Below, one piece after another: positions 1,221 through 11,303 of a DNA stretch of 33,781 nt. Below the pieces are notes generated by a model that was given only the letters and a program-made list of their open reading frames with translations, was not told the DNA's origin and ran no database searches. Positions within the stretch are counted from its first letter, which is position 1. Every line of letters begins with the position of its first letter. A program made the translations under genes and the position numbers. The stretch is from IMG/VR virus record IMGVR_UViG_640753025_000002. One strand, written 5' to 3'. Source of the stretch: a virus (Duplodnaviria > Heunggongvirae > Uroviricota > Caudoviricetes).

Positions 1221-1412
1221 TTATCGTGAGTTTTTAGTACAGATTTTTTTGGATTTACTAATAGTTCCATCATTGCAAACGAATTTGCCATCAGAGGTAC
1301 AGTGAGAAACACCTCCCTTTTTCCCTGAGCAGGGATAATTTCTAGCATAGGTAGCTAGTGGGTTTAATAACAAAGAACATGACAAAACCACAAAAAATAC
1401 CTTACCAAGCAT
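1221..1412 (-). CDS. Small secreted protein (63 aa), N-terminal signal peptide, 4 Cys in mature part; function unknown
   Basis: Strong RBS (GGGAGGAA) 5-6 nt upstream of the ATG; starts 15 bp after the cI stop, same strand as cI and int; AT-rich; hydrophobic N-terminus [23 protein letters not shown] followed by a K/C-rich mature peptide. Confidence 0.5.
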
Positions 1413-1427
1413 AATTTCCTCCCGGTA

Positions 1428-1997
1428 CTATTTAACATACTTGACTGTTAAGCTTATAATTTTACCAATTATTTCAATGTCTTCTATCTTGCATTCGAAG
1501 GCTCTGTTTCCACCCTCGACGAAGATTCTTCCACCGGGTAAACGAGTAATGTCACGGATCGTTATTTCGCCATCAATACTTATTACCCATTTACCATCAC
1601 GTATATCATCAAATTCCTTATCACAAATAAATTCAGAATTATTATCTGTGATTACAAAAAGATTCTTGAATGCCGACGGTAGAAATTCTCTATCGAAAAT
1701 ATAAAAACCGTCTTCACACAAGGCCCCATCAGATAATACATATTTAGCAACTTCCATAGTATTTGTATTACCTGAAGTTTGCTTTGAACCATGCCCGGTT
1801 GTGAGCCAATTAAGCGAGGTGCCTGTTTCAAGGGCGCACTGGATTACCCATTCTGCTGGGAATGAGTCACGCATGTAGCGTGTGGCGAGTGTACTTTTAG
1901 AGATTCCTAAATGATCGCACAACGCCTGTCGAGTCTTGAATCCATAAGCTTCTACCATGCGCTCTATAGCGCCTCGTCCGCCTTTCTCCAAATTCAT
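1428..1997 (-). CDS. cI: CI-type immunity repressor (186 CI-like; N-terminal HTH, C-terminal oligomerisation domain)
   Basis: About 190 aa; conserved pattern AYGF...LS.RY.R...CALETG..L.WL.TG.G typical of 186-type CI; ATG at 1997 preceded by GGAG; divergent from apl/cII. No LexA-like Ser-Lys autocleavage motif seen. Confidence 0.8.
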   Translation of the reverse strand: MNLEKGGRGAIERMVEAYGFKTRQALCDHLGISKSTLATRYMRDSFPAEWVIQCALETGTSLNWLTTGHGSKQTSGNTNTMEVAKYVLSDGALCEDGFYIFDREFLPSAFKNLFVITDNNSEFICDKEFDDIRDGKWVISIDGEITIRDITRLPGGRIFVEGGNRAFECKIEDIEIIGKIISLTVKYVK

Positions 1998-2021
1998 GGT
2001 CACTCCAAGTGAACTTTTATC

Positions 2022-3927: not shown

Positions 3928-4781
3928 GCACCATCCTGAAATGGGCGGGAAATAAAACCGCCATTATGTCCGAACTGAAAAAACATCTTCCTGCTGGCCC
4001 GCGACTGGTTGAACCTTTCGCGGGGTCCTGTGCTGTGATGATGGAGACGGATTATCCCAGCTATCTGGTTGCGGATATTAATCCTGATTTAATCAACCTC
4101 TATAAAAAGGTTGCCGCTGATTGTGAATCGTTTATATCTCGCGCCAGAGTTTTATTTGAGATCGCAAACAGGGAGGTGGCTTATTACAACATAAGGCAGG
4201 AGTTTAATTACTCAACTGAAATTACTGATTTCATGAAAGCGGTATATTTCCTGTATCTCAATCGTCACGGTTACCGTGGTTTATGTCGCTATAACAAGAG
4301 CGGGCATTTCAACATTCCCTACGGTAATTATAAAAATCCGTATTTCCCTGAAAAAGAAATTCGCGCATTTGCAGAAAAGGCCCAGCGAGCAACGTTTATC
4401 TGCGCCAGCTTTGATGAAACGCTGGCGATGTTGAAGGCGGGAGATGTGGTGTATTGCGATCCGCCGTATGACGGTACGTTTTCCGGCTATCACACTGATG
4501 GTTTCACTGAAGATGACCAGTATCACCTGGCATCCGTTCTTGAACATCGGTCATCAGAAGGACATCCGGTCATTGTTTCTAACAGTGACACATCCCTGAT
4601 CCGTTCGCTGTATCGCAATTTTACTCACCACTATATCAAGGTAAAACGCAGCATCGGTGTGGCAGCTGGCGAGGGTAAATCAGCAACAGAAATCATTGCT
4701 GTTTCCGGGCCGCGCTGCTGGATGGGATTTGATTATTCGCGTGGCGTGGATAGTTCTGCCGTGTACGGAGTACGTGCATGA
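3924..4781 (+). CDS. dam: DNA adenine methyltransferase (Dam, N6-adenine GATC MTase family)
   Basis: Begins [11 protein letters not shown]; AdoMet motif FAGSCAV and catalytic DPPY motif (gatccgccgtat near 4447); GGAGG RBS before the ATG at 3924; the upstream extension to 3864 is rejected. Confidence 0.85.
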
Positions 4782-7192
4782 GTCATGCCGATATGAACAA
4801 CTGCTGCGGCTTTAACGAGGCTGCCGCAGCGTTCTCATGGAACAGCCCGAAAAAGGCCATTAACCCTTATCTGGACCCGGCGGAAGTTGCGCCGGTTTCT
4901 ACGCTTTCAAACCTGATCACTCTGTACGCTGCCGATAACGAGCAGGAACAGTTGCGCCGCGAGGCACTGAGTGATCAGGTCTGGGAGCGTTATTTCTTTA
5001 ATGAATCACGTGATCCTGTCCAGCGCGAAATGGAGCAGGATAAGCTCATTAGCCGGGCAAAGCTGGCGCATGAGCAGCAGCGTTTTAATTCAGACATGGT
5101 CATTCTGGCGGACGTCAACGCCCAGCCTTCCCATATCAGCAAGCCGCTGATGCAACGTATTGAATACTTCAGCAGCCTGGGCAGGCCAAAGGCTTATTCC
5201 CGCTATTTACGTGAGACGATTAAGCCATGTCTGGAACGACTGGAGCATGTACGCGACAGTCAGCTATCTGCATCTTTTCGCTTTATGGCAAGCCATGAAG
5301 GGCTGGACGGCCTGCTGATCCTGCCTGAAATGAGTCAGGATCAGGTGAAACGCCTGTCCACCTTGGTAGCTGCGCATATGAGTATGTGCCTTGATGCAGC
5401 TTGTGGTGATTTGTATGCCACCGATGACGTTAAGCCAGAAGAAATCCGCAAGACATGGGAAAAGGTGGCAGCGGAAACCCTGCGTCTGGATGTCATCCCG
5501 CCTGCGTTTGAGCAACTCCGTCGGAAAAGAAACCGCCGTAAACCCGTGCCCTATGAACTCATTCCGGGTTCGCTGGCGCGTATGCTGTGCGCCGACTGGT
5601 GGTATCGGAAATTGTGGAAGATGCGTTGCGAATGGCGGGAAGAGCAGTTGCGTGCTGTCTGCCTGGTCAGCAAAAAAGCATCTCCCTATGTCAGCTATGA
5701 AGCCGTGATGCATAAACGTGAGCAGCGCCGTAAGTCACTGGAGTTTTTCCGTTCTCATGAACTGGTGAACGAAGACGGAGACGCGCTGGATATGGAAGAT
5801 GTGGTAAACGCCAGCAGCAGCAACCCGGCGCATCGTCGCAATGAGATGATGGCCTGTGTTAAAGGTCTGGAGCTTATCGCGGAAATGCGCGGTGACTGCG
5901 CCGTTTTCTACACCATTACCTGTCCGTCACGTTTCCATTCCACGCTCAATAACGGCAGACCCAACCCGACATGGACAAATGCGACGGTAAGACAAAGCAG
6001 CGATTATCTGGTCGGTACGTTTGCTGCATTTCGTAAGGCGATGCACAAAGCCGGGTTGCGCTGGTATGGCGTGCGGGTGGCTGAGCCGCATCATGACGGC
6101 ACAGTTCACTGGCACCTGTTGTGTTTCATGCGCAAAAAAGACCGCCGCGCCATTACTGCATTGTTGCGTAAGTTTGCTATCCGTGAAGACCGTGAGGAGC
6201 TGGGCAATAACACGGGGCCGCGCTTTAAGTCTGAGCTGATTAACCCGCGAAAAGGAACGCCGACAAGCTACATCGCGAAATACATCAGTAAGAACATTGA
6301 TGGGCGTGGTCTGGCTGGCGAAATCAGCAAGGAAACGGGTAAATCCCTGCGTGATAACGCTGAATACGTTAATGCCTGGGCGTCTCTGCATCGTGTTCAG
6401 CAATTTCGCTTCTTTGGTATTCCGGGGCGTCAGGCGTACCGTGAATTGCGATTGCTGGCTGGTCAGGCGGCAAGGCAACAGGGTGACAAAAAAGCAGGTG
6501 CGCCGGTACTGGATAACCCGCGCCTTGATGCCATTCTGGCTGCTGCTGATGCTGGTTGTTTTGCCACCTACATTATGAAGCAGGGCGGCGTACTGGTTCC
6601 CCGCAAATATCACCTTATCAGAACAGCTTATGAAATTAACGAAGAGCCGACCGCCTATGGCGATCACGGTATTCGTATTTATGGCATCTGGTCACCCATT
6701 GCAGAGGGCAAGATTTGTACTCATGCAGTGAAGTGGAAAATGGTTCGTAAGGCCGTTGACGTTCAGGAGGCGGCAGCCGACCAGGGCGCTTGCGCCCCTT
6801 GGACTCGTGGCAATAACTGTCCCCTTGCTGAAAATTTGAACCAACAGGAGAAAGATAAATCAGCTGATGGGGACCCCAGAACGGACTTTACCCGCATGGA
6901 TGACAAGGAGTTGCACGATTACCTGCACAGTATGAACAAAAAGGAGCGCCGGGAACTGGCTGCAAGGTTACGTCTGGTGAAACCGAAACGGCGTAGAGAC
7001 TACAAACAGCGAATTACAGACCATCAACGACAGCAGCTCGTCTATGAACTGAAATCCAGAGGATTTGATGGCAGCGAGAAAGAGGTCGATTTACTCCTTC
7101 GCGGCGGCAGTATTCCGTCAGGAGCAGGCCTGCGTATCTTCTATCGGAACCAGCGTTTGCAGGAAGATGATAAGTGGCGGAACCTGTATTAA
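4778..7192 (+). CDS. A: Rolling-circle replication initiator/endonuclease (P2 gpA family)
   Basis: 804 aa; HUH-type motif [13 protein letters not shown] and the tyrosine pair [12 protein letters not shown] seen at the P2 A active site; start overlaps the dam stop (ATGA). Confidence 0.9.
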
Positions 7193-7287
7193 TTACGCTG
7201 GTTAACAATTCGTGCTCTTAATAATACCAGGCATATCAAGCTGATAAGCGTAAAAAAAACGTTTTACATCAGTAAGATTATTATATA

Positions 7288-7303
7288 CTGTAAATATAAA
7301 CAG
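7288..7303. promoter_or_regulatory. LexA operator (SOS box) CTGTAAATATAAACAG
   Basis: Exact CTGT-N8-ACAG with an AT-rich spacer, overlapping a TATACT -10-like hexamer, 44 bp upstream of the 62-aa ORF and DinI-like ORF; analogous to the LexA-controlled p95/tum promoter of phage 186. Confidence 0.7.
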
Positions 7304-7346
7304 TGGTTATACATACAGTATTTCTTGTGGTGTCATAGGAGGAAAG

Positions 7347-7535
7347 ATGCAGGACTATTTTTTGGAGTCTTTGAAGCTCCAGCGCATTGATTTTTTTCTT
7401 AAGCTTGTAGCGGCTAGTGAGTGTAGTGATGAAGAGAAGGGGCTGGCTCTGCAGTGGGTTTCTGAATTGACTGATGAACTCATGGCAAAAATCAGAAGCC
7501 ACGAATACAACCGCTCAATGGATGTCATCAGCTGA
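7347..7535 (+). CDS. Hypothetical protein (62 aa), first gene of the SOS-controlled module; possible antirepressor component
   Basis: AGGAGG RBS 4 nt upstream of the ATG; immediately downstream of the LexA box; acidic small protein. Confidence 0.45.
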   Translation: MQDYFLESLKLQRIDFFLKLVAASECSDEEKGLALQWVSELTDELMAKIRSHEYNRSMDVIS

Positions 7536-7545
7536 GGTGACTTTT

Positions 7546-7779
7546 ATGCGCATTGAAATAATGATCGATAAAGAGCAGAAGATTAGCCAGTCTACCCTGG
7601 ACGCCCTTGAATCCGAGCTTTACCGCAATCTGCGCCCCCTGTATCCCAAAACGGTAATCCGTATCCGTAAAGGTAGCTCTAACGGTGTGGAACTGACCGG
7701 ACTGCAACTGGACGAAGAAAGAAAACAAGTGATGAAAATTATGCAGAAGGTGTGGGAAGACGACAGCTGGCTGCATTGA
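7546..7779 (+). CDS. DinI-family protein (DNA-damage-inducible protein I homolog)
   Basis: 77 aa; begins MRIEI... and ends ...KIMQKVWEDDSWL, alignable by eye to E. coli DinI (MRIEV...ILQETWESADDWF); GAGGTGA RBS. Confidence 0.75.
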   Translation: MRIEIMIDKEQKISQSTLDALESELYRNLRPLYPKTVIRIRKGSSNGVELTGLQLDEERKQVMKIMQKVWEDDSWLH

Positions 7780-7834
7780 TTTTGTCAATAGACGCTTGTT
7801 TTTACTAATCAAAAAGGGTTACATATGAGTGAGA

Positions 7835-7867
7835 GGCGATGTCAATCGGATATCGCCTTGTTTTTTG
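7835..7867 (+). terminator. Putative rho-independent terminator after the SOS module
   Basis: Stem GGCGAT / ATCGCC with an 11-nt loop, followed by TTGTTTTTTG. Confidence 0.5.
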
Positions 7868-7892
7868 TCAAGAAAAGAATAATAGGCTAAAA

Positions 7893-8570
7893 ATGAAAAT
7901 TAATAATGTAGCGTTACCAATATCTCTTGCTGTAATCCTAACTGGTTGCGTGCCACATGCTTCTAACCGAAATATCACTGCTATTGAAGTGGTGAAGCCT
8001 GCTATTGGGCAAAGTGCTACCGCCTACATGGGCGATCCCATTATCACATCTGCTACTGGATTTAAAACGGACGTACTAGAACTTGGTGCGGCTAATGGTG
8101 CATTGTCTTCTATCGCTGCTGGTACATATTGCAGTGAGGGGAATGGAATTTACCGCAATTATCATAACCCTCAAGCTGTTGCGTTAAAAAATCTCTATGG
8201 GCAAATCGGTAACTATGTTGATTATGTTAGTTACGATGCTGCAAAAAATGAGATATCACCGCCAAATGGTACTTCTTATACTGCATCAGAAATTTCTATC
8301 AAACGTGTTCCTGATGGGCTGTGTCGAGTTAGTAACTCATTGGTTAAGACTATCGAATACAATGGAAATGCAGGCGGTGTAATGAAGTTCACCTATCGTG
8401 AATTTGCAAACGATATGGCTCGTGCAGCATTTACAACAGATTTTTCTGTAGATTCTAAGGGAAGTGACGTTATCGCTTACAAAGGTGCCAAGTTCAAAGT
8501 GAACAAGGCTGATAACTCGTCTATTTCTTATACAATTATTTCTGGCTTTGACAAGGCTGTCACGTTCTAG
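7893..8570 (+). CDS. Lipoprotein of unknown function (226 aa)
   Basis: Signal peptide with lipobox LTGC (MKINNVALPISLAVILTGC); AT-rich relative to phage core genes; lies in the variable region between A and cos. The ORF-track start at 7839 runs through the upstream terminator and is rejected. Confidence 0.6.
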   Translation: MKINNVALPISLAVILTGCVPHASNRNITAIEVVKPAIGQSATAYMGDPIITSATGFKTDVLELGAANGALSSIAAGTYCSEGNGIYRNYHNPQAVALKNLYGQIGNYVDYVSYDAAKNEISPPNGTSYTASEISIKRVPDGLCRVSNSLVKTIEYNGNAGGVMKFTYREFANDMARAAFTTDFSVDSKGSDVIAYKGAKFKVNKADNSSISYTIISGFDKAVTF

Positions 8571-8855: not shown

Positions 8856-10247
8856 ATGAACGAAAAACTAACTGAATTAAAAGAGAAACTAGATAATTTA
8901 CATACAACACTTAATGGTCTTGTATTCCCTGTGGAAGATTTTATAAACCTTGGGCCGTACACATTTCCTTTTTTACATAAAGATGATCTGATAGAACTAC
9001 CAAAAATGTTATCTGATAGAATTAATCAGATGCAGGAATTTGTACCATCTTCAGATGACATTGCAGTAATTGATGCGCTCATTTACACTCTGGATCATGC
9101 TCAGCAAAATATTAATCATATAAACAATGGTAACGCATCAGTTCAACAGACCGCTATACCATCTTATGTTATTTCAATGTTATATATCTCTCATAGGATT
9201 AATGACCTTTTTTCATTTGAGAGGCTGAAAGATAGAAATTTATTACCAAAGCAAATTTTACGCAGATTAGAATTATATAATTCAGGTATATCTGCAATTG
9301 CAGCTGAAACTGGTAATATAGAAGAGAAAATTAAAACTATAAATGAAGCATATGATGCAGCCGAGAATCTACCGACAACAGTAAAAATGCTTCGTGAAAC
9401 AAATGATGAAGTTAAAAATGTTTACAATAGCGCAGTTGAGCATTGCAGAAATATTAATGGCATGCTTAAAGAGACTGAAGAGAACTCCAAAATCGTAGAT
9501 GAGGCCAGACAAGAAATTTTGGCGCTGAAACAGAATGCAAGCAAGGATGCAAAAGATTATTTACAATCTCTCCGTGAAGAAGCTCAGGGTTATATTAATA
9601 AATGTGAAGAGGCATTTAGAACTACTACTTCAAAAGGTTTGGCTGGGGCATTTCAAGATAAAGCAGAAAAATTAAACCGGAGCATACGTTGGTGGGTATG
9701 TGGACTAATAGGTGCTTTGGTTGCAGGTGCTGCTGTTGGTTATACGCGTTTACATGCTCTCGAAGCATATCTGTCAAACCCTGACGCATCAGGTATAAAG
9801 TTAGCTATTCAACTTTTACTCTCCATTTTAAGTGTTGGAGCACCATTATGGTTTGCTTGGTTAGCAACGAAACAAATTGGTCAGCGATTCAGATTGGCAG
9901 AGGATTATGAATTCAAGGCCTCAGTATCCAAAGCTTATGAGGGATATAGAAGAGAAGCTGTCCAACTTGATAGCGACTTTACCCAAAGGTTATTTGGTAA
10001 TGCACTTACTCGACTGGAGGAGCCGCCATTAAGATTTGTTGAAGAAGCTACCCATTCATCGCCTATAATGGAAATGTTATCATCGGAAAATTTTAAGCAT
10101 TTCTTAGCTAATGGTGGCGATAAAATCGATTCAATTTTAGAAGGTGCAGGCCTTTCTAGAAAAGGTAAAGTCGAACAAACGCGCCATTTTAATAAGGATG
10201 TGATCCAGCCTGTAAATGAAACTTCAAACAAACCAGAAAATGATTAA
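8856..10247 (+). CDS. Membrane-associated protein of unknown function (463 aa): N-terminal coiled-coil-rich domain plus a two-helix transmembrane hairpin; candidate defence/abortive-infection effector
   Basis: Very AT-rich ORF with an AAGGA RBS; two hydrophobic helices (WWVCGLIGALVAGAAVGY and IKLAIQLLLSILSVGAPLWFAWLA) after about 265 aa of K/E/N-rich helical sequence; no NTPase or nuclease motif recognisable by eye; sits between cos and Q. Confidence 0.7.
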   Translation: MNEKLTELKEKLDNLHTTLNGLVFPVEDFINLGPYTFPFLHKDDLIELPKMLSDRINQMQEFVPSSDDIAVIDALIYTLDHAQQNINHINNGNASVQQTAIPSYVISMLYISHRINDLFSFERLKDRNLLPKQILRRLELYNSGISAIAAETGNIEEKIKTINEAYDAAENLPTTVKMLRETNDEVKNVYNSAVEHCRNINGMLKETEENSKIVDEARQEILALKQNASKDAKDYLQSLREEAQGYINKCEEAFRTTTSKGLAGAFQDKAEKLNRSIRWWVCGLIGALVAGAAVGYTRLHALEAYLSNPDASGIKLAIQLLLSILSVGAPLWFAWLATKQIGQRFRLAEDYEFKASVSKAYEGYRREAVQLDSDFTQRLFGNALTRLEEPPLRFVEEATHSSPIMEMLSSENFKHFLANGGDKIDSILEGAGLSRKGKVEQTRHFNKDVIQPVNETSNKPEND

Positions 10248-10272
10248 AAATAGGGGCGTTAGCCCCCTATTT
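10248..10272. terminator. Bidirectional rho-independent terminator between convergent genes
   Basis: AAAAATAGGGGC-(GTTA)-GCCCCCTATTT hairpin flanked by an A-run and a T-run, between the 463-aa gene (+) and Q (-). Confidence 0.5.
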
Positions 10273-10274
10273 CA

Positions 10275-11303
10275 TCAAAGCATATACTCATTAAAATTAA
10301 TTACATCATCATCTAACCAAGTGTTCAGTTCCAGTATTTTTTTTTGTAATACTGTTAACTCATTTCTAACAAATACTTTGCAGGCTTTCTCCACATCCCC
10401 AAATCCCCCAACATTATTAGGCATTATCCCCATCATTTGTGGCGGTACACGGTGCGCAGCCATCATGTCGTCGCGGCTGACATTTTTGATATTCAGAAAT
10501 TCATCCTTCGCCGCGACTTCTGACAACGGGATAATCTGAAGACCATCCTTTTTGCCGTTAGGTGAGTACATAAACAGGTTGCGGAAGTTGCCTGGACCTT
10601 TGGCGCTTTTCATTGCGTTGCGGAGGTTGTTCACATCCTCCTGGTTCTGCGCAGCATCGGTCATGTACATGATGAAGCCAGCATGACTGCCGTTAATGTA
10701 ATACTTTCGGCGGAACAGCGTGGCGGACTCGTTGAGCAGGGCTGACGGAATGGCAGAAAGATAACCGGGCAGGCCGTAGATCTCCTGGTTGATGTCCGGT
10801 TCCATCAGATGAAAGATGCTGCCTTTCGTGAACTGATATGGCTGCGTGGTCATACCGTATTGCACAAACCAGTAGGTATCCAGGTCTAACCCGCGTCGGG
10901 TATATTTTGCCAGGGCAGGTTCAAGGGCGATAACTTCACCGAAGCGGTTCGTGCGTTTCTCCAGGTAGGCGTTACCAAATACCAGATAGTCCTGCACAAA
11001 ACGCGAAAAAGCCTGCTGGCTGAGCAGCGGGTGAGGGATGTAGGTGCTGGTCAGAATGTTGCACTTTACTGCAATCGGGGAACTATGATGCACGGCAGCG
11101 CGGAAGGTGCGCGCCAGTCCGTCAAAGCTGACGGGCGGCTCATACCAGCGGTCCATCTGTACGCATTCCACATAATCCAGCAGTTCTCGGCGGTCCAGAA
11201 CAGGAACGGGATCGCCGAAGCTGAATGCTTCGGCTGTAGTTTGACTTTTAAGCTGGATCTGTTTCGTCGCCGCAGCGCGGTTCTTCTTACTCTTTCCCAT
11301 CAA
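10275..11303 (-). CDS. Q: Portal protein (P2 gpQ family)
   Basis: 342 aa (P2 Q is about 344 aa); position and orientation match P2 Q, with its start overlapping the end of P. Confidence 0.9.
   Translation of the reverse strand: MMGKSKKNRAAATKQIQLKSQTTAEAFSFGDPVPVLDRRELLDYVECVQMDRWYEPPVSFDGLARTFRAAVHHSSPIAVKCNILTSTYIPHPLLSQQAFSRFVQDYLVFGNAYLEKRTNRFGEVIALEPALAKYTRRGLDLDTYWFVQYGMTTQPYQFTKGSIFHLMEPDINQEIYGLPGYLSAIPSALLNESATLFRRKYYINGSHAGFIMYMTDAAQNQEDVNNLRNAMKSAKGPGNFRNLFMYSPNGKKDGLQIIPLSEVAAKDEFLNIKNVSRDDMMAAHRVPPQMMGIMPNNVGGFGDVEKACKVFVRNELTVLQKKILELNTWLDDDVINFNEYML

Follow-up and report, generated by a model that had tools for sequence, protein, structure and literature searches.

A probable SOS operon with split tumA and tumB genes in a Fels-2-like P2-family prophage

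How can a prophage be induced by DNA damage if its repressor bears no sign of being able to cleave itself? The question is raised by a stretch of caudovirus DNA (IMG/VR virus record IMGVR_UViG_640753025_000002; all 33,781 nucleotides of it are called the window here) in which a predicted LexA operator is followed by a 62-aa open reading frame and then by a second that encodes a relative of DinI. A preliminary description took this arrangement for a LexA-controlled induction switch like the Tum of phage 186, divided between two reading frames and paired with a CI repressor that, as in 186, would not cleave itself. That reading is upheld by synteny, by profile matches, by the membership of the second protein in the DinI family, by the type of CI, and by near-identity to Fels-2. 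The region is very probably the SOS operon ("tum") of a Fels-2-like prophage of the P2 family (Peduoviridae), in which tum is split into tumA and tumB. Such a module is already known, and its LexA control and antirepressor role come from the literature on 186, PSP3, and Fels-2. What was obtained directly here is evidence from sequence features, homology, synteny, conservation, and purifying selection.

The genes around tumAB make up a P2/186-family prophage set, with an integrase, CII (CP76), Fil, DUF2732, a DksA-like zinc finger, and a Dam methylase in the neighbourhood. Transcription runs rightward, and tumA begins at 7347, shortly after gene A ends at 7192, the same order being found in Fels-2, PSP3, and 186. 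Fels-2 has an identical succession of gene A, a 62-aa ORF, and a DinI family protein. The genes and their ribosome-binding sites are:

1428-2003, minus strand: cI, 186-type immunity repressor and presumed target of TumA (PF07022 and PF16452)
4778-7192, plus strand: gene A, replication endonuclease (PF05840, E 1.3e-127; synteny with 186, PSP3, and Fels-2)
7337-7342, plus strand: Shine-Dalgarno sequence AGGAGG of tumA, seen in the sequence and invariant in relatives
7347-7535, plus strand: tumA, encoding a 62-aa predicted antirepressor of 186-type CI (phrog_698, E 5.9e-38)
7534-7539, plus strand: Shine-Dalgarno sequence GAGGTG of tumB, overlapping the TGA stop codon of tumA (7533-7535)
7546-7779, plus strand: tumB, encoding a 77-aa DinI-family protein (Pfam PF06183, E 6.6e-23)
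10275-11303, minus strand: ORF occupying the position of portal gene Q in Fels-2

Over positions 7150-7850 the DNA is 96.6% identical to that of Salmonella phage Fels-2, and many Klebsiella prophages match the same region at 97.6-97.9% identity. The 701-bp segment occurs with 100% identity in E. coli HS and in further strains, and given this match E. coli appears to be the host. Some version of the tum segment is held by 1124 of 5426 complete E. coli genomes, about a fifth.

The repressor itself is what gives the question its force. The cI product is 33% identical to 186 CI, and it matches PDB entry 2FJR with an E value of 2.6e-31. It had been remarked earlier that the protein is without a recognisable autoprotease motif, and its domains bear this out: the protein is of the 186 type, composed of PF07022 and PF16452, and its Peptidase_S24 score of 16.3 bits lies below the cut-off of 23.3.

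The proteins of the operon

An alignment by eye had suggested that the 77-aa ORF encodes a DinI homolog, and so it proves. The protein scores 81.3 bits against PF06183, where the gathering cut-off is 24.2, and covers the profile from end to end (positions 1-63 of 63). It also matches the PDB structure of DinI, 1GHH (E 2.7e-6), and residues 71-146 of 186 Tum, the C-terminal part of that protein, are 41% identical to it. TumB begins MRIE, like chromosomal DinI, and is 100% identical to the DinI family protein of Fels-2 and 78% identical to TumB of PSP3. Because its score against NCBIfam NF007893 is 42.7 bits, short of the 111 bits that form the equivalog cut-off for chromosomal DinI, TumB is classed by its sequence as a phage paralogue of DinI, not as host dinI. 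The gene is under strong purifying selection, with dN/dS of 0.05-0.09 in comparison with relatives at dS of about 1.

The 62-aa ORF had been credited with a strong ribosome-binding site, which is the AGGAGG listed above, and dN/dS of 0.06-0.11, again with relatives at dS of about 1, marks it as a real coding gene under equally strong constraint. Its product is 96.8% identical to Fels-2 STM2728. Its likeness to 186 Tum, which the preliminary description supposed, is found at the level of profiles only; a pairwise BLASTP of the 62-aa ORF against 186 Tum gave no alignment. Residues 7-44 of 186 Tum match phrog_698, the family of TumA, with an E value of 2.4e-5. Both TumA and 186 Tum match phrog_8554 (1.1e-8 and 1.4e-11), and both match phrog_1993, the family of PSP3 TumA. 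The PHROG cross-matches with TumA fall in residues 1-61 of 186 Tum. When nine TumA-type sequences were compared by hhalign with the N-terminus of 186 Tum and PSP3 TumA, residues 3-43 were aligned to residues 3-43 (E 5e-5, probability 67%), a region that includes the conserved Cys26 and Ala-Leu 34-35. The profile links are modest; taken with identical position and control, they support a homology between TumA and the antirepressor half of 186 Tum. A single-sequence AlphaFold2 model of TumA gives a simple two-helix hairpin (pLDDT 91.5), which is a generic shape.

It might be argued that the operon is an SOS-regulated moron that serves mainly the host. In that case the DinI-like protein would modulate RecA, with consequences for mutagenesis or for the induction of other prophages, and the 62-aa protein would have some unrelated function. 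TumB is indeed a bona fide member of the DinI family, phage-borne dinI genes are common across many phage types, and TumA offers little to object with, belonging to no family in Pfam or NCBIfam and having no relative in PDB (nor did tumA or its region give a match in PADLOC or Rfam). Yet profiles and synteny tie TumA to the N-terminus of Tum, and in the genomes checked TumA is always found alongside a 186-type CI. There is also the genetic evidence that loss of Fels-2 permits lexA null mutants: Fels-2 was gone from every lexA null survivor of Salmonella LT2, according to the summary of Bunny et al. (2002) contained in PMC12626290. A function mainly in the service of the host is on these grounds very improbable, and a tum operon remains the preferred reading. 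In their 2002 study Bunny et al. reportedly held the Fels-2 tum homologue responsible for the lethality of lexA null mutations.

The operator upstream of tumA

Within the window CTGTAAATATAAACAG, at 7288-7303, is the sole occurrence of CTGT-N8-ACAG. By itself the 16-mer is no better than chance, 0.52 instances being expected per window and at least one being found in 46 of 100 shuffled sequences. It is context and conservation that make a LexA box convincing here. The longer site, TACTGTAAATATAAACAGTG, agrees with TACTGT-N8-ACAGTA at 11 of 12 consensus positions, a match reached in only 2% of 300 dinucleotide-preserving shuffles, and it is placed between gene A and tumA. A LexA box precedes the homologous gene in all 15 of the P2-family relatives examined, at a distance of 38-96 bases from the start codon, and one is also found upstream of the dinI-antA pair in the unrelated phage PY54. 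The control elements of the operon are these:

7263-7268, plus strand: TTTACA, the probable -35 hexamer for tum, which does not vary among 8 diverged Fels-2-type relatives and is positioned like the annotated -35 of 186 p95
7284-7291, plus strand: -10 region TATACTGT, read as TATACT (15-bp spacer) or as TACTGT (17-bp spacer, the choice annotated for 186 p95); overlaps box 1 and is invariant in relatives
7286-7305, plus strand: predicted LexA box 1, TACTGTAAATATAAACAGTG, with its core at 7288-7303; kept in 8 Fels-2-type relatives
7301-7320, plus strand: predicted LexA box 2, CAGTGGTTATACATACAGTA, with 9 of 12 consensus positions matched and 5 bases shared with box 1
7833-7866, plus strand: intrinsic terminator downstream of tumB, an 11-bp stem and a T-run, in a position analogous to that of 186 t95a

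That an exact CTGT-N8-ACAG lies at 7288-7303 and overlaps a -10-like TATACT had been noticed before, and the coordinates are exact, with TATACT at 7284-7289. What stands of the LexA operator first described is box 1, conserved and close to the consensus; what was missed is that the operator is a double SOS box, with a second box at 7301-7320. The right half of box 2, ACAGTA, is perfect and the left half is poor, having GTGG instead of CTGT. The stretch CAGTG is common to the two overlapping boxes, and two parts of box 2, CAGTGG and TACAG, are conserved among relatives. When the upstream regions are aligned, the single perfect box of 186 and of PSP3 falls on 7301-7320, that is on box 2, and not on box 1.

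The promoter is probably composed of TTTACA as its -35 element and a -10 element inside TATACTGT. It was not picked up by a simple scan for consensus promoters. The 186 record places the -10 of p95 on the first six bases of its LexA site, and the -10 assigned here follows that analogy. Across the 8 diverged Fels-2-type relatives, TTTACA (7263-7268), TATACTGTA, CAGT-G, TACAG, AGGAGG, and ATG are all invariant and the DNA between them is variable. The phylogenetic footprint takes in both promoter elements, both LexA boxes (box 1 together with the -10), and the Shine-Dalgarno sequence. At the other end of the operon, the terminator folds with -16.6 kcal/mol (z -3.4), and none of 200 shuffled sequences folds equally well. 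A hairpin between the two cistrons (7524-7541), which might have coupled the translation of tumB to that of tumA, is non-significant (z -1.15) and is not conserved in relatives.

A likeness to the double box is found in plasmids. A plasmid search with 7255-7346 found about 730 plasmid records, mostly of small mobilizable plasmids, that match 7281-7326 at about 85% identity. Two of the matches were inspected: one immediately precedes the colicin N gene (cna), the other the pesticin gene (pst) of pPCP1. Colicin and pesticin promoters have the same architecture as the one described here, in which box 1 leads through the shared CAGTG to box 2. The colicin N operator has 5 differences from the 35-bp TACTGTAAATATAAACAGTGGTTATACATACAGTA of the window and 3 from the Fels-2 version. 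In an alignment of the phages with the bacteriocin promoters, TACTGTA, CAGTGGTT, and TACAGT are invariant, and all the consensus positions of box 2 are identical between 7301-7320 and the operators of colicin N and pesticin. The core of box 1 is the perfect CTGT-N8-ACAG in the window, whereas colicin N has CCAG. The operators also differ in what they drive, a prophage antirepressor in the one case and a toxin in the other, and the LexA sites of the phage are predicted ones.

The predicted operator at 7286-7320 is, then, a colicin-type pair of overlapping SOS boxes. That LexA would bind box 2 is judged only from its identity to the colicin operators. In front of colicin genes, two LexA dimers bind the overlapping boxes, their cooperative binding is documented, and there is no basal expression (PMC2994835). 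Fels-2-type prophages would use such an operator at tumA, whereas 186 and PSP3 have a single box, a reading to which I give about an even chance. A difference of just 3 to 5 bases in 35 from the operators of colicin N and pesticin suggests either that a promoter-operator cassette was exchanged between Col plasmids and P2-family phages or that strong convergence took place. If the reading is true, the double operator predicts a higher damage threshold than in 186, an absence of basal expression, and all-or-none induction in rare cells. Compared with 186, induction should be later, more bimodal, and under tighter control. A colicin-type double SOS box before tumA is the sole element of the module for which no description was found in the literature searched, although Bunny et al. 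(2002) may note it, and the point is a modest one.

Split and fused forms of tum

Tum of 186 is a single polypeptide, and among the traits of the 186 module that were checked this is the only one lacking here. In the window the TGA at 7533-7535 ends tumA, and tumB lies in the +1 frame with a Shine-Dalgarno sequence of its own, which is why the locus is filed under the split tumA/tumB variant and not under the fused form. It consists of two cistrons, an antirepressor and then a DinI homologue, behind one promoter with predicted LexA control.

The two frames could in principle be the remains of a single gene. A recent frameshift in a fused gene like that of 186 would have left a pair of pseudogenes and a prophage that is no longer inducible. 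The frames lend themselves to this view: the DinI frame is open back to 7474, overlapping the end of the 62-aa ORF, and a one-base deletion anywhere within 7474-7535 would join the two into a protein of about 143 aa, near the 146 aa of 186 Tum. The frameshift that had been suggested is thus possible on paper. The relatives, however, contradict recent decay. The offset in frame from tumA to tumB is 0 in PSP3 and Yersinia phage MLG42, 1 in the window, Fels-2, and Klebsiella ST13phi12.1, and 2 in SopEPhi, SEN8, and ST437phi4.1. Their spacers run from 3 to 13 bases and differ in sequence, and each contains a stop codon and a purine-rich Shine-Dalgarno sequence for tumB. At dS of about 1 the dN/dS of both genes is 0.05-0.11, fused tum is far less widespread than split tum, and tumB starts with the same MRIE as chromosomal DinI. 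The notion of a broken gene is so improbable as to be effectively refuted, and what is preferred is an operon of two intact genes. Programmed frameshifting was also considered and rejected: a +1 shift would be needed, inspection revealed no conserved slippery site, and the shift that is needed varies among relatives.

The division into two ORFs had been thought the unusual feature of the locus, but it is the common state and an already published one (PMC3121763; PSP3 record). In the sample of phages examined, fused tum was found only in 186 and four phages with a near-identical Tum (MHG75, EtG, Kp4882-2, and BIS20). The split form is found in several genera, with tumA and tumB adjacent in seven genus-level groups that include Felsduovirus, Elveevirus, Dagavirus, Wadgaonvirus, Gegevirus, and, in Eganvirus, PSP3.

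There is a third state of the locus. ESSI-2-type phages lack a DinI gene but carry a LexA box and a homologue of TumA. In ESSI2_ev015 the TumA homologue is 49% and the 186-type CI 38% identical, a LexA box is present, and a tblastn search of the whole genome gave no DinI-like match. Moreover, the 186 record itself has an internal GTG start, aligned with the start of TumB, that yields a separate DinI-like product of 76 aa annotated 'modulates SOS induction'. Since ESSI-2-type, split, and fused (186) arrangements all occur, the conserved core of the system is TumA, the LexA box, and a 186-type CI, with the DinI module absent, separate, or fused.

Could TumA and TumB nevertheless be obligate partners, both needed against CI, say by pairing into a heterodimer equivalent to 186 Tum? 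Both parts form one polypeptide in 186, and the two genes lie side by side on one transcript and have been kept together in all seven of the genus-level groups. It is difficult to see such a partnership in the ESSI-2-type phages, which keep LexA box, TumA, and 186-type CI and do without DinI. For PSP3, antirepressor activity is reported to reside in the upstream gene by itself, in a personal communication that is cited second-hand in a passage of PMC3121763. The separate expression of the DinI-like part by 186, under an annotation that concerns the SOS response, speaks against a partnership as well, and so does the presence of DinI genes beside unrelated antirepressors, in the reverse order, in PY54 and the Gifsy phages. 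An obligate two-part antirepressor is in consequence quite unlikely. The three states of the locus (TumA alone, TumA with a separate DinI, and the fusion) support the preferred reading, that TumA is the switch and the DinI part an optional tuner.

Mechanism and known systems

I propose that in an undamaged lysogen two LexA dimers would occupy the overlapping SOS boxes at 7286-7320 and so cover the -10 of the promoter whose -35 is TTTACA. Upon DNA damage, RecA would become active, LexA would cleave itself, and a short bicistronic tumAB transcript would be made, ending at 7833-7866. TumA, a predicted helical hairpin of 62 aa and the counterpart of the antirepressor N-terminus of 186 Tum, would then bind the CI that does not cleave itself and keep it off its operators, whereupon the early lytic promoter would fire and the prophage would be induced. 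TumB, the 77-aa paralogue of DinI, most likely attaches to RecA filaments and adjusts how strong the SOS signal is or how long it lasts, as an accessory and not as the switch. The occupancy of both boxes by LexA, the binding of TumA to CI in this phage, and the role of TumB are steps of the proposal. A module of this kind explains how a very common type of prophage in E. coli, Klebsiella, and Salmonella can be induced by DNA damage, including that caused by antibiotics such as fluoroquinolones, despite a repressor that cannot be cleaved.

Systems of similar logic are found in Gifsy-1 and Gifsy-2 (dinI-gfoA/gftA) and in PY54 (dinI-antA), where a LexA box likewise governs a DinI paralogue and a small antirepressor of a non-cleavable repressor. 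In these the gene order is reversed with respect to tumAB, and the antirepressor families are unrelated to TumA. A kinship between TumA and AntA of the PY54/N15 type was rejected, hhalign giving an E value of 0.32 and the proteins belonging to different PHROGs. AntC of N15 is a published case related to antA of PY54.

The SOS operon of 186 (p95, tum, and orf97) resembles the locus in following gene A, in having a LexA operator over the -10, in its 186-type CI, and in the terminator after tum. The N-terminal region of 186 Tum is homologous to TumA, judging by the profiles, and its DinI-like C-terminal region is the one compared with TumB above. Tum of 186, under LexA control, acts as an antirepressor by binding CI and keeping it from its operators (Shearwin et al. 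1998, as cited in a passage of PMC3121763). It differs in being one polypeptide of 146 aa, with internal starts that also give the DinI-like part alone, and in the single LexA box that precedes it. For orf97, which follows tum in 186, there is no homologue in the window: a 243-aa ORF downstream equals its product in length but is unrelated to it (BLASTP E 4.7).

PSP3 has the split arrangement, downstream of gene A and under a LexA box, as here, and the division of tum in two has been reported for both Fels-2 and PSP3 (Lemire et al. 2011, PMC3121763). The PSP3 record describes tumA as 'similar to 5' end 186 tum; UV induction of prophage' and tumB as 'similar to dinI and 3' end of 186 tum'. In PSP3, however, TumA falls in a different PHROG (phrog_1993) and bears only a distant resemblance to the TumA of the window; the LexA box is single and perfect, not double; the two ORFs share a frame and are parted by TAG and three further bases, where the window has a +1 offset; and the annotated cI is much longer, at 861 bp or about 286 aa.

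With Fels-2 the differences come down to two substitutions in the TumA protein and two base changes within the box 2 spacer. STM2728 and STM2726.1 are the same genes in the same order, with the same double SOS box and the same ribosome-binding sites. The Fels-2 record calls STM2728 'hypothetical'; for STM2726.1 it gives 'DinI family protein' and remarks on a 'similarity to TumB [PsP3]'. By sequence comparison, then, the closest known system is that of Fels-2, followed by tumA/tumB of PSP3 and after that by the p95-tum operon of 186.

The tumA operator and a second LexA-like site

7286-7320, predicted tumA operator, two overlapping SOS boxes
1062-1081, LexA-like 20-mer TACTGTATGTATAACCAGTG, matching 10 of 12 consensus positions

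Comparison of sequences predicts that the tumA operator is an overlapping pair of SOS boxes, whereas 186, PSP3 and the ESSI-2-type phages have a single box. The operators of colicin N and pesticin differ from the predicted tumA operator by mismatches at only 3-5 of 35 bases, and 7281-7326 is matched at about 85% by about 730 plasmid records, small mobilizable plasmids making up the majority. The second LexA-like site precedes the probable start of the integrase (ATG 1032, minus strand) by about 30 bases. It may well be a chance match, since about 0.6 20-mers as good as this one are expected per window by chance.

Genes flanking the switch

1221-1412, minus strand, 63-aa ORF between cI and int
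7839-8570, 243-aa ORF as mechanically called, its start falling within the tumB terminator
8856-10247, 463-aa ORF, phrog_34659 (unknown function)
10247-10273, GC-rich hairpin with T-runs on both strands

The ORF that follows tumB probably begins at ATG 7893, giving a 225-aa protein that carries a lipoprotein signal, MKINNVALPISLAVILTGC. Its product belongs to phrog_1353 (unknown function). The ORF was considered as the counterpart of 186 orf97; the two are of equal length, yet unrelated. Between tum and the portal gene lies a region of variable cargo, which houses the 463-aa ORF here and another gene in Fels-2. The 463-aa product has only weak matches, which comprise coiled-coil or SMC-like models, JetC-like at E 6e-4, and a family of membrane domains. 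The gene may act in defence or exclusion. The hairpin separates the 463-aa ORF from the one that converges on it, which occupies the position of the portal gene, and looks, from its sequence, like a bidirectional terminator. The 63-aa ORF next to cI has a signal-peptide-like N-terminus and several cysteines, and a Pfam search with it gave no match. PSP3 has a DUF2511 gene at this position.

TumA and DinI in other phages

Escherichia phage ESSI2_ev015, 20384-20596, locus of the TumA homologue
Yersinia phage PY54, 660-1250, LexA box GACTGTATACATATACAGTA, then dinI, then antA

Escherichia phage 500465-1 has both genes, annotated in its record as longer ORFs. Its tumA (701-889 of the piece examined) contains a brief divergent run of residues, ERGWLCSG in place of EKGLALQW, suggestive of two frameshifts that compensate each other.

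ESSI2_ev015 and Cronobacter phage ESSI-2, both of the P2 family, possess a LexA box, a TumA homologue at 41-49% identity and a 186-type CI. A search of the entire ESSI2_ev015 genome found no DinI-like gene. TumA seems to form the core of the induction switch and to be sufficient by itself. PY54 has the same functional pair as tumA-tumB in reversed order, with an antirepressor from a family unrelated to TumA.
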